In this document: positions 24,008 to 34,198 of the stretch, one piece after another
Numbering within the stretch: the stretch's first letter is position 1
Layout: each line of letters opens with the position of its first letter
Sequence record: MZ501089
Origin: Escherichia phage KarlGJung
Strand: one strand, 5' to 3'
DNA: 64,000 nt
The notes under the pieces: generated by a model
What the model was told of the DNA's origin: nothing
Database searches by the model: none
Seen by the model: only the letters and a program-made list of their open reading frames with translations
Program-made: the position numbers and the translations under genes

Positions 24008-27000
24008 ATGGCCGAGATTAAAAGAAAGTTCAGAGCAGAAGATGGTCTGGACGCAGGTGGCGATAAAATAATCAACGTAGCTTTAGCTGATCGTACCGTA
24101 GGAACTGACGGTGTTAACGTTGATTACTTAATTCAAGAAAACACAGTTCAGCAATATGACCCAACTCGTGGATATTTAAAAGATTTTGTAATCATTTATA
24201 ATAATCGTTTTTGGGCAGCAACGGATAATATTCCAAAACCTGCTGGAAATTTTAATAGAATTCGTTGGAAAGCATTACGTACTGATGCCGTATATACAAC
24301 CGTATCATCTGGACCATATCAATTAAAATCCGGAGAAGCAATTTCAGTAGATACATCAGTTGGCAATGACATTGAGTTTACTTTACCACCTTCTCCGCTT
24401 GATGGAGAAACCGTAATAATTCAAGATATCGGTGGAAAACCTGGCATAAATCAGGTTAAAATAAATTCTTCAAATCAGAGTATTGTCAATTTTAGAGGTG
24501 AACAGGTACGTTCAGTTTTAATGACTCATCCAAAGTCACAGATGGTATTCATTTTTAATAATCGTTTGTGGCAAATGTATATTGCTGATTATAGCAGAGA
24601 AGCTGCGATTGTTACTCCATCGACTGCATATCAAGCACAATCTAATGATTTTATCGTACGTAGATTTACTTCTGCTGCACCAATTAATGTTAAACTTCCG
24701 AGATTTGCTAATCATGGCGATATTATTAATTTCGTTGATTTAGATAAACTGAATCCACTTTATCATACAATTGTTACTACATACGATGAAACGACTTCAG
24801 TACAAGAAGTTGGAACTCATTCCATTGAAGGCCGTACATCGATTGACGGTTTCTTGATGTTTGACGATAATGAGAAATTGTGGAGATTGTTTGACGGGGA
24901 TAGTAAAGCACGTTTACGCATTATAACAACTAATTCAAATATTCGTCCAAATGAAGAAGTCATGGTATTTGGCGCGAATAATGGAACAACCCAAACAATT
25001 GAACTTCAGCTTCCGACTGATATTTCTGTTGGTGATACTGTTAAAATTTCCATGAATTACATGAGAAAAGGACAAACAGTTAAAATCAAAGCTGCTGGTG
25101 AAGATAAAATTGCTTCTTCAGTTCAATTGCTGCAATTCCCAAAACGTTCAGAATATCCGCCTGAAGCTGAATGGGTAACAGTTCAAGAATTAGTTTTTAA
25201 CGGTGAAACTAATTATGTACCAGTTTTGCAACTTGCTTATATAGAAGATTCTGATGGAAAATACTGGGTTGTACAGCAAAACGTTCCAACAGTTGAAAGA
25301 GTCGATTCTTTAAATAATTCTACTAGAGCAAGATTAGGCGTAATTGCTTTAGCTACACAAGCTCAAGCAAATGCTGATTTAGAAAATTCTCCGCAAAAAG
25401 AATTGGCAATTACTCCAGAAACGTTAGCTAATCGTACTGCTACAGAAACTCGCAGAGGTATTGCAAGAATAGCAACTACTGCTCAAGTGAATCAGAACAC
25501 CACATTCTCTTTTGCAGATGACCTTATCATCACTCCTAAAAAGCTGAATGAAAGAACTGCTACAGAAACTCGCAGAGGTGTCGCTGAAATTGCTACGCAG
25601 CAGGAAACTAATACAGGTACTGATGATACTACAATCATCACTCCTAAAAAGCTTCAAGCTCGTCAAGGTTCTGAAACATTATCGGGTATTGTAACTTTTG
25701 TATCTACCGCAGGAGCTACTCCAGCTTCTAGTCGTGAATTAAATGGTACGAATGTTTATAATAAAAACACTAATAATTTAGTTGTTTCACCTAAAGCTTT
25801 GGATCAGTATAAAGCTACTCCAACGCAACAAGGCGCAGTAATTTTAGCAGTTGAAAGTGAAGTAATTGCTGGACAAAGCCAAGAAGGATGGGCAAATGCG
25901 GTTGTAACGCCAGAAACGTTACATAAAAAGACATCAACTGATGGAAGAATTGGTTTAATTGAAATTGCTACGCAAAGTGAAGTTAATACAGGAACTGACT
26001 ATACTCGTGCAGTCACTCCTAAAACTTTAAATGACCGTAGAGCAACTGAAAGTTTAAGTGGTATAGCTGAAATTGCTACACAGGTTGAATTCGACGCAGG
26101 CGTCGACGATACTCGTATCTCTACACCATTAAAAATTAAAACCAGATTTAATAGTACTGATCGTACTTCTGTTGTTGCTCTATCTGGATTAGTTGAATCA
26201 GGAACTCTCTGGGACCATTATACCCTTAATATTCTTGAAGCAAATGAGACACAGCGTGGTACACTTCGTGTAGCTACACAAGTTGAAGCTGCTGCAGGAA
26301 CATTAGATAATGTTTTAATAACTCCTAAAAAGCTTTTAGGTACTAAATCTACCGAATCGCAAGAAGGTGTTATTAAAGTTGCAACTCAGTCTGAAACTGT
26401 GACTGGAACGTCAGCAAATACTGCTGTATCTCCAAAAAATTTAAAATGGATTGTGCAGAGTGAACCAACTTGGGCAGCAACTACTCTGATAAGAGGGTTT
26501 GTTAAAACTTCTTCTGGTTCATTAACGTTTGTTGGTAATGATACGGTAGGTTCAACACAGCCATTAGAATCATATGAGAAAAATGGTTATGCAGTATCAC
26601 CATATGAATTAAATCGCGTATTAGCAAATTATTTGCCATTAAAAGCAAAAGCTGTAGATAGTAATTTATTAGATGGTCTAGATTCGCTCCAGTTCATTCG
26701 TAGGGACATTGCACAAACAGTTAATGGTTCACTAACCTTAACCCAACAAACGAATCTGAGTGCCCCTCTTGTATCATCTAGTACTGCTACATTCGGTGGA
26801 TCAGTTTCAGCAAATAGTACATTAACTATTTCTAATACTGGAACGGCAACTCGTCTGATTTTTGAGAAAGGACCTCAAACTGGAACAAACCCGGCTCAAA
26901 CGATGACAGTCAGAGTGTGGGGAAATCAATTTAGTGGGGAATCAGACACAACACGTTCTACCGTATTTGAAGTTAGTGATGAAACGTCTAGTCATTTTTA

Positions 27001-27877
27001 TTCTCAGCGTAATAAAGCTGGAAATATAACATTTAATATCAACGGTACAGTAACACCGATAAATGTTAATGCTTCAGGAACATTGAATGCGAATGGCGTT
27101 GCTACATTTGGTAATTCAGTCACTGCAACTGGTGAAATTATTTCTCGAAGCGCAAATGCTTTCCGTGCTATTAATGGAAATTATGGTTTCATTATTCGTA
27201 ATGACGGGTCAGTAACGAATTTTATGCTTACTGCATCGGGTGATCAAACTGGCGGATTTAATGGATTGCGTCCTTTAGCTATTAATAATGCATCTGGCCA
27301 AGTAACGATTGGTGAAAGCTTAATCATTGCAAAAGGTGCTACTATAAGTTCGGGTGGTTTGACTGTTAACTCGAGAATTCGTTCTCAGGGTACTAAAACC
27401 TCTGATTTATATACCCGTGCGCCAACATCTGATACAGTAGGATTCTGGTCAATCGATATTAATGATTCAGCCACTTATAACCAGTTCCCGGGTTATTTTA
27501 AAATGGTTGAAAAAACTAATGAAGTGACTGGACTTCCATACTTAGAACGTGGTGAAGAAGTTAAATCTCCTGGTACATTGACTCAGTTTGGTAACACACT
27601 TGATTCACTTTACCAAGATTGGATTACTTATCCAACGACCCCAGAAGCACGTACCACTCGCTGGACACGTACATGGCAGAAAACCAAAAACTCTTGGTCA
27701 AGTTTTGTTCAGGTATTTGACGGAGGTAACCCTCCTCAACCTTCAGATATAGGAGCGATCCCATCTGATAATGGAATAATAGGTAATCTTACTATTCGCG
27801 ATTTCTTGCGAATTGGTAATGTTCGCATTATTCCTGACCCGGTGAATAAAACTGTTAAATTTGAGTGGATTGAATAA
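24008..27877 (+). CDS. 34: gp34 long tail fiber proximal subunit
   Basis: 1289 aa; internal repeats of the type TPxxLxxRxATETRRG(I/V)AxIATxxE (six or more copies); late promoter upstream. Confidence 0.95.
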   Translation: MAEIKRKFRAEDGLDAGGDKIINVALADRTVGTDGVNVDYLIQENTVQQYDPTRGYLKDFVIIYNNRFWAATDNIPKPAGNFNRIRWKALRTDAVYTTVSSGPYQLKSGEAISVDTSVGNDIEFTLPPSPLDGETVIIQDIGGKPGINQVKINSSNQSIVNFRGEQVRSVLMTHPKSQMVFIFNNRLWQMYIADYSREAAIVTPSTAYQAQSNDFIVRRFTSAAPINVKLPRFANHGDIINFVDLDKLNPLYHTIVTTYDETTSVQEVGTHSIEGRTSIDGFLMFDDNEKLWRLFDGDSKARLRIITTNSNIRPNEEVMVFGANNGTTQTIELQLPTDISVGDTVKISMNYMRKGQTVKIKAAGEDKIASSVQLLQFPKRSEYPPEAEWVTVQELVFNGETNYVPVLQLAYIEDSDGKYWVVQQNVPTVERVDSLNNSTRARLGVIALATQAQANADLENSPQKELAITPETLANRTATETRRGIARIATTAQVNQNTTFSFADDLIITPKKLNERTATETRRGVAEIATQQETNTGTDDTTIITPKKLQARQGSETLSGIVTFVSTAGATPASSRELNGTNVYNKNTNNLVVSPKALDQYKATPTQQGAVILAVESEVIAGQSQEGWANAVVTPETLHKKTSTDGRIGLIEIATQSEVNTGTDYTRAVTPKTLNDRRATESLSGIAEIATQVEFDAGVDDTRISTPLKIKTRFNSTDRTSVVALSGLVESGTLWDHYTLNILEANETQRGTLRVATQVEAAAGTLDNVLITPKKLLGTKSTESQEGVIKVATQSETVTGTSANTAVSPKNLKWIVQSEPTWAATTLIRGFVKTSSGSLTFVGNDTVGSTQPLESYEKNGYAVSPYELNRVLANYLPLKAKAVDSNLLDGLDSLQFIRRDIAQTVNGSLTLTQQTNLSAPLVSSSTATFGGSVSANSTLTISNTGTATRLIFEKGPQTGTNPAQTMTVRVWGNQFSGESDTTRSTVFEVSDETSSHFYSQRNKAGNITFNINGTVTPINVNASGTLNANGVATFGNSVTATGEIISRSANAFRAINGNYGFIIRNDGSVTNFMLTASGDQTGGFNGLRPLAINNASGQVTIGESLIIAKGATISSGGLTVNSRIRSQGTKTSDLYTRAPTSDTVGFWSIDINDSATYNQFPGYFKMVEKTNEVTGLPYLERGEEVKSPGTLTQFGNTLDSLYQDWITYPTTPEARTTRWTRTWQKTKNSWSSFVQVFDGGNPPQPSDIGAIPSDNGIIGNLTIRDFLRIGNVRIIPDPVNKTVKFEWIE

Positions 27878-29063: not shown

Positions 29064-29714
29064 ATGGCTGATTTAAAAGTAGGTTCAACTGTAGGTGGAT
29101 CTGTCATTTGGCATCAAGGAAATTTTCCATTGAATTCAGCCGGTGACGATGTACTCTACAAATCATTTAAAATATATTCAGAATATAATAAACCACAGGC
29201 AGCTGATAACGATTTCGTTTCTAAAGCTAATGGTGGTACTTACACCGGTCCAATTACTATTAATTACGGGGTAAATAGTTATCTTCAATTAAGTAATAAT
29301 GAAACCCCCATTCGAATTCGTTCTGGTGGCGGTACCGGTAATACTCTTGTAGTTGGCGGCTCTTCCGGCGGTATTAGTTTTAGACCTGCAGGTAGTGAAA
29401 TCACTACTGGACAAATTACGATTACGCCAGAAGGTTTGACAACATTTACCAAAGCTGTAACGGCTCCATCTGTAACTGTTACATCTACTCCTTCCGCAGC
29501 ATCTGATGTTACTCGTAAAGATTATGTTGATGGAGCAATAAATACTGTTACAGCAAATGCAAACTCTAGGGTATTACGCTCTGGAGACACTATGACAGGA
29601 AATTTAACTGCGCCAAACCTTTTTTCACAGAATCCTGCATCTCAACCTTCACACGTTCCACGATTTGACCAAATCGTAATGAAGGATTCTGTTCAAGATT
29701 TCGGCTATTATTAA
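29064..29714 (+). CDS. 36: gp36 long tail fiber distal connector
   Basis: 216 aa, [24 protein letters not shown]...; late promoter TATAAATA upstream. Confidence 0.85.
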
Positions 29715-29722
29715 GAGGACTT

Positions 29723-32692
29723 ATGGCTACTTTAAAACAAATACAATTTAAAAGAAGCAAAACCGCAGGTCAACGTCCTGCTGCTTCAGTATTAGCCGAA
29801 GGTGAATTGGCTATAAACTTAAAAGATAAAACAATTTTCACAAAAGATGACTCAGGTAGTGTTATAGAATTAGGTTTAAAATATGGAGGAACTATAAATG
29901 GGTCTTTAGAGGTTACAGAAAATATAACTGGAACTTTAATTGGAAATTCTAGCACAGCTACTAAATTGCAAACACCTAGGAAAATTAATGGTATATCTTT
30001 TGATGGGTCAAAAGATATCACGCTAACTCCATCTGACATAAATGTCAATAGCACAACATTTATAAAAAATAATGGCGAATTACCTACTGATGCTAATTTA
30101 GATACGTATGGGCCCATTGAAGAATATCTTGGTGTTTGGTCGAAATCTACTTCAACAAATGCGCAACCAGCAAATAAATTCCCAGAAGAAAATGCCGTAG
30201 GTGTACTAGAAGTATTTGTGGCCGGCCAATTTGCTGGCACTCAGCGTTATACTGTAAGATCTGGTAACGTCTATATTCGTTCCTTATCTGCTAAATGGAA
30301 TGGCGTCGATGGTCCATGGGGTGTGTGGCGTAATGTTCAAGCGTCAACTCGTCCACTTTCACAAACGATTGACCTTGATAGCTTGGGAGAATTAGAACAT
30401 TGTGGCTTATGGAGAAACAGTTCAAGCGCAATCGCATCATTTGATCGCCATTATCCAGAAGAAGGATCAGCCGCACAAGGATTTTTAGAAATATTTGAAG
30501 GTGGTTTATACGCAAGAACGCAGCGTTATACTACCCGCATGGGTATGGTTTATACTCGTTGTCTCGCTGCTGCATGGGATGCTAGTGCACCTAAGTGGGA
30601 GGAATGGAAGCAGGTTGGTCATGGCACACCAGCGACTTTCTATGATGGAGATCTGAATGATTTTAAAACTCCTGGGTTATATAACATTTTAGGCACTGAT
30701 GCCGTTATTAACTGTCCTACTGGTGAAGGTTTACCAGCCGTTATTGTTGGTTTGCTGGAAGTTAAACAGCGTGCTTCTGGTGGTGCTATTTTCCAAAAAT
30801 TTACTACTGCCGGAACGGGTGCAACTACTCGCGATCGTATTTTTGAGCGTGCATATACTGGTGGTGCGTGGGGCGCATGGAACGAAGTATATACATCTTA
30901 TTCTCTTCCAATTACTTTGGGTATGGGTGGTATTAAAGCTCAATTAGCGGAGTTAGATTGGCAAACCTTTGATTTTGTTCCTGGTAGTATGTTTAGCGTT
31001 CCTTTGAACAAAATAAAGAACATGCCAGCAAATATGGATTGGGGGACGATTGACGGAAACTTGGTTATGTTTTCCGTTGGTCCTAGCGAACACACTGGCA
31101 CAGGGCGTACTGTTCAAGTGTGGCGCGGTACTGTATCTCAGGCGAACTATCGTTATTTCGTTGTTCGTATCGCTGGTAATCCAGGAAGTAGGACTAATAC
31201 TTGTCGTCGTGTTGTTGTGGAAGATGGTCGCCACACATGGACAGCACAGCAAGATTTTAATGGTGCTGTCAACTTTGGTGGTTCGACAACTTTTAAGTCC
31301 ACTACAACTTTTAACACAGAAGTTAAATTCCGTTCATCCAATGCATTTAAAATGTATGGCGGTAATTTTGGCACAATTTTCCGTAATGATGGTGAAAGTC
31401 TTTATATTCTTTCCACCGACGAAAATGATCAAGATGGAAACTTTAATACAAATAGACCTTTCCGCTATCAATTAAAAACTGGCGATGTTACTTTGGGTGG
31501 CACTAGCGGTGCTAACGCTTTAGTATTAAAAGGCGGTTCTCTTGCTGCTACCTTTAGCGGTGATGTTAATTTAAGTAAAGGTACGCTGACGTTTGAAGCG
31601 GGTGGTAAGCAATCACGCGATTATTTCCGGTTTAATCATTGGGGTGATAGCAATAACGCTCGTGATAACATTATTCAGTTAGAAGATAGTAAAGGCGCTC
31701 ATTTTTCCACTGAACGTACTTTAGCGACGGGTGCAATTAAAACTAAGTTCTTTGGTGAAGTTGAATCCGATGGTCGATTGACTATTAAACGTCCTGGTGA
31801 TTCTATTGTATTATCAACAACTGCTGGTAATGCTTTGCATATTCGTGGTGACATAGACGGGACTGGTAACTGGTATATTGGTAAGGGTGGTGCTGATAAT
31901 TCGCTAGCATTTTATAGCTATGCTTCTCAGGCGGCAGTACATATCACAAACAATGGTGAGATTGCGTTAAACCCGCAAAATACCGCAATGGTTAACGTTA
32001 ACCGTGACCGTGTACGCATTAACGGTTCTGGATGGATTGCTAGACAACCGGGTGATTGGGGCAACCAATGGCGAGTAGAAGCTCCATTATTCGTTGATCA
32101 TGGTTATGTTTCACAGGATTGTTATTATCCTATTCTTAAAGCAAGAAGCGTTATAACCAATCAAGGATATAGCACCGCTGTTGACTTTGGTATGCGTCGT
32201 ATTCCATCACAGTGGGGGCAAGCAATCATTCGTGTCGGATCCACGGAGGCTTCTCCTGATGCTGGACACCCACAAGCTGTGTTTGAATTCCATCATGATG
32301 GATTCTTTTATACACCAGGAAATGGTAGCTTTAGCGATGTGTATATTCGTTCTGACTCCCGTCTCAAGATTAATAAAGAAGAATTAGAATATGGAGCGGT
32401 CGAAAAAGTTTGCCGACTGAAAGTTTATATTTACGATAAAGTTAAGTCTATTAAAGACCGTAGTGTTATTAAACGTGAAGTTGGTATTATTGCTCAGGAC
32501 CTTGAAAAGGAATTACCGGAAGCTGTATCTAAAGTTGAAGTTGATGGATCTGATGTTCTGACAATTTCTAACTCTGCTGTGAATGCTCTTTTAATTAAGG
32601 CTATTCAGGAAATGAGTGAAGAAATTAAAGAATTGAAAACGCCTCTCTTTACTAAAATTGCTCGCAAAATTAGTAAATATTTTAAATTCTAA
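29723..32692 (+). CDS. 37: gp37 long tail fiber distal subunit with C-terminal chaperone-like domain
   Basis: 989 aa; N-terminal region similar to gp36/gp34 N-termini; C-terminal roughly 115 aa begins at an SDSRLK motif followed by predicted helical segments. Confidence 0.9.
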
Positions 32693-32728
32693 CAACAAGG
32701 GGGAAATGCCCCCTTTGGAGTATAAATT

Positions 32729-33511
32729 ATGGCAGTAGTTGGTGTTCCTGGTTGGATTGGAAGTTCAGCCGCAAATGAAACAGGACAGCGCTGGATGAGT
32801 CAAGCGGCTGGTCAATTAAGATTGGGTGTTCCTTGCTGGATGAGTCAATTTGCAGGTCGCTCACGAGAAATTATTCACACGCTTGGAGCAGACCATAACT
32901 TCAATGGTCAATGGTTCCGAGATAGATGTTTTGAGGCAGGTAGTGCACCTATAGTGTTTAATATTACGGGTGATTTAGTATCATATTCTAAAGATGTTCC
33001 TTTATTCTTCATGTACGGAGATACACCAAATGAATATGTTCAGTTAAATATACATGGCGTAACGATGTATGGACGTGGCGGTAATGGTGGTAGCAATAGT
33101 CCTGGCTCAGCTGGAGGTCATTGTATTCAAAACGATATTGGTGGGAGACTAAGAATTAATAATGGTGGAGCTATTGCTGGCGGCGGTGGCGGCGGTGGCG
33201 GCGGATATTATTCTCCTTTTTCACAAATGAGATTAACCTTTGGCGGTGGTGGTGGGCGTCCGTTTGGTGCACCTGGCGGATCTATTGATATGCAATCAGG
33301 CGCAACTGCTGGTACTATTTCTGCACCTGGCTCAGGATCCGTGAATGGTATCTATAATGGTGGAAACGGTGGTGAAGTAGGTTCCGCGGGAGGTAGATGC
33401 AATATTCGCGGTCAAGGATCTGAATATAATGGCGGCGCTGCTGGTTATGCTGTCATAGGGTCTGCTCCAACGTGGCAAAATGTTGGAGCAATATATGGTC
33501 CAAGAGTATAA
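32729..33511 (+). CDS. 38: gp38 receptor-binding adhesin, glycine-rich (T2/T6-type)
   Basis: 260 aa with several glycine-rich motifs ([50 protein letters not shown]) separated by short variable segments; directly follows gene 37. Confidence 0.85.
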
Positions 33512-33541
33512 TGTGAATAAATACCCTTAAAAGGAGGGTCT

Positions 33542-34198
33542 ATGGCAGCACCTAGAATATCATTTTCGCCCTCTGATATTCTGTTTGGTGTTCTAGATCG
33601 CTTGTTCAAAGATAACGCTACCGGGAAAGTTCTTGCTTCCCGGGTAGCTGTCGTAATTCTTTTATTTATGATGGCGATTGTTTGGTATAGGGGAGATAGT
33701 TTCTTTGAGTACTATAAGCAATCAAAGTATGAAACATACAGTGAAATTATTGAAAAGGAAAGAAATGCACGCTTTGAATCTGTCGCCCTGGAACAACTCC
33801 AGATAGTTCACATATCATCTGAGGCAGACTTTAGTGCGGTGTATTCTTTCCGCCCTAAAAACTTAAACTATTTTGTTGATATTATAGCATACGAAGGAAG
33901 ATTACCTTCAACAATAACTGAAAAATCACTTGGAGGATATCCTGTTGATAAAACTATGGATGAATATACAGTTCATTTAAATGGACGTCATTATTATTCC
34001 AACTCAAAATTTGCTTTTTTACCAACTAAAAAGCCTACTCCCGAAATAAACTACATGTACAGTTGTCCATATTTTAATTTGGATAATATCTATGCTGGAA
34101 CGATAACCATGTACTGGTATAGAAATGATCATATAAGTAATGACCGCCTTGAATCAATATGTGCTCAGGCGGCCAGAATATTAGGAAGGGCTAAATAA
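33542..34198 (+). CDS. t: holin T
   Basis: 218 aa; one N-proximal TM helix (VAVVILLFMMAIVWY) and a large C-terminal domain; matches T4 T holin size and position after gene 38. Confidence 0.9.
   Translation: MAAPRISFSPSDILFGVLDRLFKDNATGKVLASRVAVVILLFMMAIVWYRGDSFFEYYKQSKYETYSEIIEKERNARFESVALEQLQIVHISSEADFSAVYSFRPKNLNYFVDIIAYEGRLPSTITEKSLGGYPVDKTMDEYTVHLNGRHYYSNSKFAFLPTKKPTPEINYMYSCPYFNLDNIYAGTITMYWYRNDHISNDRLESICAQAARILGRAK

Follow-up and report, generated by a model that had tools for sequence, protein, structure and literature searches.

A predicted self-removing folding domain at the C-terminus of the long tail fibre distal subunit gp37 of Escherichia phage KarlGJung

Intramolecular chaperones of fibre proteins and the KarlGJung fibre locus

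The C-terminal chaperone domain of endoNF is the founding member of the Peptidase_S74 family. Cleavage by such domains was abolished when either residue of the serine–lysine pair was mutated, which is S911/K916 in endoNF and S587/K592 in MyRF, and in endoNF the upstream arginine R897 is also part of catalysis (PMC8326128). Proteins with C-terminal intramolecular chaperone (IMC) domains, which are removed by autoproteolysis, have been described for S16, T5, K1F and phi29 (PMC7289586). In the case of S16 gp37, the autocleavage of the last 113 residues is given in the work on Yersinia phage fPS-65, which refers to Dunne et al. 2018 (PMC7917993). By analogy with S16, the same work predicted that Gp246, the gp37 homologue of fPS-65, undergoes autocleavage after DVYIR, which would expose the docking tip for gp38 (PMC7917993). 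For T2 gp37, C-terminal proteolytic processing followed by capping with gp38 was reported, the title of that study naming the processing in general terms (Drexler, Riede & Henning 1986). The gp37 of T4, on the other hand, has its own receptor-binding tip and folds with the help of two separate chaperones, gp38 and gp57A, of which gp38 is absent from the T4 virion (PMC3157838).

The DNA analyzed here, referred to as the window, is a 64,000-nt stretch of Escherichia phage KarlGJung (MZ501089), a Tequatrovirus with a fibre locus of the T2 type. The open reading frames of the window follow the order g34-g35-g36-g37-g38-t, and the same gene order is annotated in fPS-65 and T2. The genes of the locus are the following:

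24008-27877: gp34, open reading frame, 1289 aa
27886-29001: gp35, open reading frame
29064-29714: gp36, open reading frame
29723..32692, + strand: g37, long tail fibre distal subunit precursor, 2970-nt open reading frame, 989 aa, about 108.3 kDa
32729..33511, + strand: g38, tail fibre adhesin of the T2/S16 type, 260 aa, Pfam GP38 and Gp38_N
33542-34198: t, holin, open reading frame

The gp37 protein was assigned to the PHROG family phrog_1699, 'long tail fiber protein distal subunit', with an E-value of 3.6e-226, and among the trimerisation-domain families of Pfam it matched Gp34_trimer with an E-value of 1.1e-12, and gp37_trimer weakly, below the cut-off. The gp38 protein matched Pfam Gp38_N in residues 1-42 (E 6.1e-20) and GP38 in residues 47-260 (E 3e-72), as well as the PHROG family phrog_2056, 'host specificity' (E 7.5e-113). 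It is an adhesin of the type composed of an N-terminal attachment domain and a glycine-rich receptor-binding domain. Several Tequatrovirus genomes, among them LF73P1, a48, JK23 and fPS-65, share 99.4-99.7% DNA identity with the region 31800-33600.

A domain of about 90 aa is repeated in tandem in the N-terminal third of gp37 (window 30050-30640, residues about 110-306). Two of the copies, located at residues about 120-205 and at about 212-300, share 41% identity (E 3e-21), and residues about 310-390 form an apparent third, more diverged copy, possibly reaching to about 30900. This repeat-bearing part matched the PHROG 'tail collar fiber protein' family phrog_4618 with an E-value of 2.2e-39. 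When compared to fPS-65 Gp246, gp37 has five fewer residues and only three substitutions in its N-terminal 480 residues. Nearly all of the differences cluster in the central shaft, at residues about 480-720 (window 31150-31900), where scattered substitutions occur together with a deletion of 6 residues close to residue 527, and none of the differences is located in the C-terminal region discussed below. This patch is a local mosaic typical of tail-fibre recombination. The stop codon of g37 (32690-32692) is separated from the start of g38 (32729) by 36 nt, and this gap contains a hairpin with the sequence G5-AAATG-C5 at 32697-32715, with a predicted stability of -14.8 kcal/mol and a z-score of only -1.75. 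A pattern scan classified it as terminator-like on the minus strand only, and a minus-strand terminator is annotated at the same place in the fPS-65 record. In the late transcript of the plus strand, the hairpin might conceivably affect RNA stability or couple g37 to g38.

A Peptidase_S74 domain at the C-terminus of gp37

A preliminary description of this DNA had placed an SDSRLK motif near the end of gp37, and proposed that about 115 C-terminal residues, beginning with this motif at 32348, serve as an intramolecular chaperone. The motif and its sequence were found as described; SDSRLK occurs once, directly after ...GSFSDVYIR, and its first residue is number 877 (nt 32351). The boundaries were shifted slightly, as 32348 is the start of the R876 codon and the predicted nucleophile S877 is one residue further on, and the region from S877 to the C-terminus is 113 residues long. 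The parts of this region are listed below, where A1 denotes the alignment described in the next paragraph but one:

32351..32689, + strand: C-terminal IMC domain, residues 877-989, 113 aa, about 12.9 kDa, identified by Pfam, phmmer, profile and Foldseek searches, with predicted release once the trimer has folded
32351..32527, + strand: core Peptidase_S74 match, residues 877-935, profile positions 1-57 of 58, 39.6 bits
32570..32626, + strand: long C-terminal helix, residues 950-968, DSSP assignment on an AF2 model (fragment 106-124) of low confidence
32639..32689, + strand: proline-interrupted basic tail, residues 973-989 (17 aa), in A1 restricted to this window and fPS-65, and lacking in T2

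To identify the domain, gp37 was compared with the Pfam family PF13884 Peptidase_S74 ("Chaperone of endosialidase"), for which the curated gathering cut-off is 22 bits. The data showed that residues 877-935 of whole gp37 matched this family with 39.6 bits (E 6.3e-10), which is about twice the cut-off, and that the C-terminal fragment matched it with 44.1 bits (E 2.5e-11), so that the HMM search named in the preliminary description as a check gave a positive result. No NCBIfam model matched gp37 or the domain, but that library does not contain a model of this kind, and hence this result is not evidence against the assignment.

A single-sequence phmmer search showed a match of the C-terminal 150 residues of gp37 to S16 gp37 in the PDB entry 6F45 ('Long tail fiber distal subunit') with an E-value of 5e-4. 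In the alignment the SDSRLK motif of gp37 is placed against SDRRIK of S16, and the aligned region covers the sequence between the S16 site, ...NVSSDRRIKK, and the last residues of the helix. For the profile searches we used the alignment A1 of 12 sequences, consisting of this window, fPS-65, T2 gp37, the S16 fragment, the T5-type L-shaped fibre protein pb1, pneumococcal-phage PblB, and six metagenomic or prophage proteins. The A1 profile matched 6F45 with an E-value of 4.6e-40, but this match is circular and was discounted because the S16 fragment sat in the query alignment, and the independent evidence regarding 6F45 is the single-sequence phmmer match. Other PDB entries matched by the A1 profile were 8JOV, a tail fibre (E 1e-10), the MyRF ICA 7DC3 (E 6e-10), and the neck-appendage autochaperone 3GUD (E 5e-3). 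The endoNF entry 3GW6 was not found by the sequence search, and was only detected by the fold search.

The distribution of the domain region was analyzed using tblastn, which gave matches in 1473 phage records, ranging from phages of Escherichia, Klebsiella, Salmonella, Vibrio and Aeromonas to those of Streptococcus and Synechococcus. Additionally, 29 PHROG tail-fibre families matched the C-terminal fragment. A homologous-protein search with a 131-aa fragment returned 18 matches, mostly partial prophage or contig fragments, which were used for alignments only. Taken together, gp37 residues 877-989 are a Peptidase_S74 IMC domain located at the extreme C-terminus (877-989 of 989) of a fibre protein. 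The proposal that the C-terminus of gp37 is an intramolecular chaperone is well borne out by the PF13884 match, the phmmer match to 6F45, the profile matches to 7DC3 and 3GUD, and the conserved S877 and K882 residues.

An AF2 monomer model of gp37 residues 845-989 was calculated from a shallow alignment of 15 sequences, and had a mean pLDDT of 52.4 and a pTM of 0.34. The poor quality of the model is not surprising, because the domain exists only as an intertwined trimer and because the alignment was shallow. In this low-confidence model a short helix (892-897) comes first, the strands lie in the region from about 902 to 948, and two helices follow, the long one at 950-968 and a second one at 974-986. 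The 27-residue stretch at about 887-913, which had been called coiled-coil-like in the preliminary description, is modelled instead as the short helix followed by β-strands, while the candidate coiled coil is located further toward the C-terminus. The candidate for a trimeric coiled coil of the IMC domain is the long helix 950-968, and trimerisation of MyRF is driven by the corresponding C-terminal coiled coil (PMC8326128). The best PDB matches of the model in Foldseek were all IMC domains, including 7DC3 (E 1e-4), 3GUD and 3GW6, although with TM scores of only 0.35-0.45, as obtained with this poor model, and the T5 pb1 entry 4UW8 was found further down the list. The 6F45 entry was absent among the Foldseek matches of the low-confidence model, and the cleaved IMC domain may not be part of the coordinates deposited for it. 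These fold matches could be regarded as weak corroboration of the IMC identity.

Catalytic residues, the cleavage site and gp38 docking

To define the putative cleavage site, the beginning of the domain was compared among the sequences of A1 and with the catalytic residues of endoNF and MyRF. The features which are important for the proposed processing are the following:

29723..32350, + strand: predicted mature gp37, residues 1-876, about 95.4 kDa, ending with ...SDVYIR, as deduced from the site given for fPS-65 (PMC7917993)
32351..32353, + strand: Ser877, predicted nucleophile, with the scissile bond R876/S877; nearly invariant in A1
32366..32368, + strand: Lys882, predicted general base of the Ser–Lys dyad; invariant in 12/12 of A1
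32729-32854, + strand: gp38 attachment domain, residues 1-42, Gp38_N; docking on the cleaved gp37 tip according to PMC7917993, which cites Dunne et al. 2018

The data showed that the Ser-x4-Lys dyad is intact in gp37. The A1 sequences are nearly invariant at D878 and R880, and also at S877, which is missing only from a fragment that starts later. The spacing of S877 and K882, with the lysine at position +5 from the serine, is the same as that of S911/K916 in endoNF and S587/K592 in MyRF. The dyad of gp37 is aligned to position 587 and K592 of MyRF in 7DC3; the protein crystallised there was the S587A mutant, with the sequence ADLRAK at this site. The strand of the tip directly before the site is DVYIR in gp37, in fPS-65 and in the metagenomic relatives, while in T2 it is NVYIR. 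Moreover, gp37 and fPS-65 Gp246 share 95% identity over the whole protein and 100% over the last 215 residues, and gp37 of the E. coli phage KEP10 was 100% identical over the 131-aa query used in tblastn.

These observations suggest how the domain would work in KarlGJung. Three gp37 chains would associate via their IMC domains, with the C-terminal helices forming a trimeric bundle, and the IMC trimer would nucleate the folding of the fibre trimer upstream of it and set its register. After correct folding of the trimer, Lys882 would activate Ser877 for its attack on the R876–S877 bond. Each chain would then release a fragment of 113 residues and about 12.9 kDa, leaving a mature chain of about 95.4 kDa that ends with ...DVYIR, and gp38 would dock on the newly exposed tip of gp37. 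For the cleavage itself, its dependence on trimerisation, and the docking of gp38 on the new tip we rely on T2, S16, endoNF and MyRF, and the two homologues among them for which cleavage of gp37 was described, S16 and T2, are only 33-42% identical to gp37 within the domain. Nevertheless, it is very probable that the C-terminus of gp37 is a self-removing folding domain, which is cleaved at R876/S877 and thereby exposes the docking tip for gp38. The preliminary description had suggested self-cleavage near residue 876 as the origin of the tip exposed to gp38, and precisely this is stated for fPS-65 (PMC7917993), which has the identical last 215 residues; for KarlGJung it is supported by this close homology.

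The C-terminal 40 residues of gp37 are charge-rich and predicted to be helical by AF2, which could raise the concern that the helical, charged C-terminus gave a chance or compositional match, and that there is no chaperone domain in gp37. However, the Pfam match covers residues 877-935, an N-terminal part of the domain that is not coiled, with a score about twice the cut-off, and there are independent matches to several solved IMC proteins, in addition to those in the 29 PHROG families and the 1473 phage records, which makes the probability of a chance match practically negligible. The particular case of a coiled coil picked up by its composition was rejected because the half of the domain that gives the Pfam match is the N-terminal one, which is not helical.

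It could also be considered that the Peptidase_S74 domain is a trimerisation or folding module, which in this lineage stays uncleaved and is kept on the mature fibre, while gp38 binds elsewhere or to the IMC domain itself. The additional basic tail (973-989) is unusual and T2 does not have it, which might be taken to favour this reading, but both catalytic residues and the surrounding S-D-x-R-L-K sequence are intact and conserved, and the VYIR strand of the tip is shared with T2, whose gp37 is reportedly processed. Moreover, gp38 has the conserved attachment domain, which in S16, as cited in the fPS-65 work, docks on the surface exposed by cleavage. Hence, the retention of the domain on the fibre seems improbable. 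The wording of the 1986 title on T2, which says only 'proteolytic processing' and names no protease, would also be compatible with trimming of gp37 at this site by a separate host or phage protease, in which case the domain would be only a chaperone. This is extremely unlikely in view of the fact that mutation of the serine or the lysine abolishes cleavage in endoNF and MyRF (PMC8326128), and that S16 gp37 is described as autocleaved in the accounts which cite the original study (PMC7917993, PMC7289586), with the dyad conserved here. Autocleavage at R876/S877 is the explanation that best agrees with these data.

The tail at residues 973-989 is strongly basic and amphipathic, while in the relatives from A1 without this tail the C-terminal helix either ends or continues as a coiled coil. 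This lineage-specific tail is the only mildly unusual detail of the domain. It is very unlikely that the released 12.9-kDa fragment or the tail has a second role beyond folding, for example in membrane association, in the timing of gp38 loading, or in the interaction with gp57A.

The proposed processing has practical consequences. In the annotation, the mature gp37 of KarlGJung would correspond to residues 1-876. When recombinant fibres or constructs with exchanged gp38 are designed, the IMC domain must stay for folding, and a loss of about 12.9 kDa should be expected, while tags placed at the C-terminus of gp37 would be removed together with the released fragment.

Comparison with described systems

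The fibre locus of KarlGJung is of the T2 type and not of the T4 type. The gp37 of T4 occupies the same position in the virion, which is the distal half-fibre, and it has a homologous N-terminal part, while its tip and its folding by separate chaperones are different than proposed here. The T2 gp37 has the same type of locus, and the same VYIR/SD.RLK junction, and is 42% identical across the domain, although its domain is shorter, with 99 residues after the site, and does not have the basic tail. Outside the domain, T2 gp37 is largely unrelated to gp37 of KarlGJung.

The S16 gp37 (6F45; Dunne et al. 2018, as cited in later work) resembles gp37 of KarlGJung in having an IMC domain of 113 residues, which begins with S-D-x-R-x-K and is autocleaved to expose the tip for gp38, and the S16 gp38 belongs to the same family of polyglycine-rich adhesins. 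On the other hand, the IMC domains of both phages are only about 33% identical, and the residues preceding the site are DLNVS/S in S16 and DVYIR/S here, so that the P1 residue is serine in S16 and arginine in KarlGJung. The upstream fibre sequence of S16 is unrelated (PMC7917993). More distant are the IMC domain of endoNF (3GW6) and the ICA domain of MyRF (7DC3), which belong to the same Pfam family, and have the same Ser-x4-Lys dyad. Their C-terminal helix forms a trimeric coiled coil, for which helix 950-968 is the candidate in gp37. Their identity to the gp37 domain in structural alignments is 8-21%, and their cargo is a tailspike sialidase and a membrane-bound transcription factor, respectively, instead of a fibre shaft.

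The closest system with a published prediction of the cleavage site is fPS-65, which also has the same g38 adhesin and holin neighbours as KarlGJung. The finding presented here is correct but ordinary, because the predicted cleavage site is already in print for a phage with an identical sequence in this region, and its value is in annotation and engineering, with little as a discovery. The domain family, the Ser–Lys mechanism, the presence of the domain in gp37 of the T2 type, and the exact predicted site in the identical sequence of fPS-65 have all been published before.
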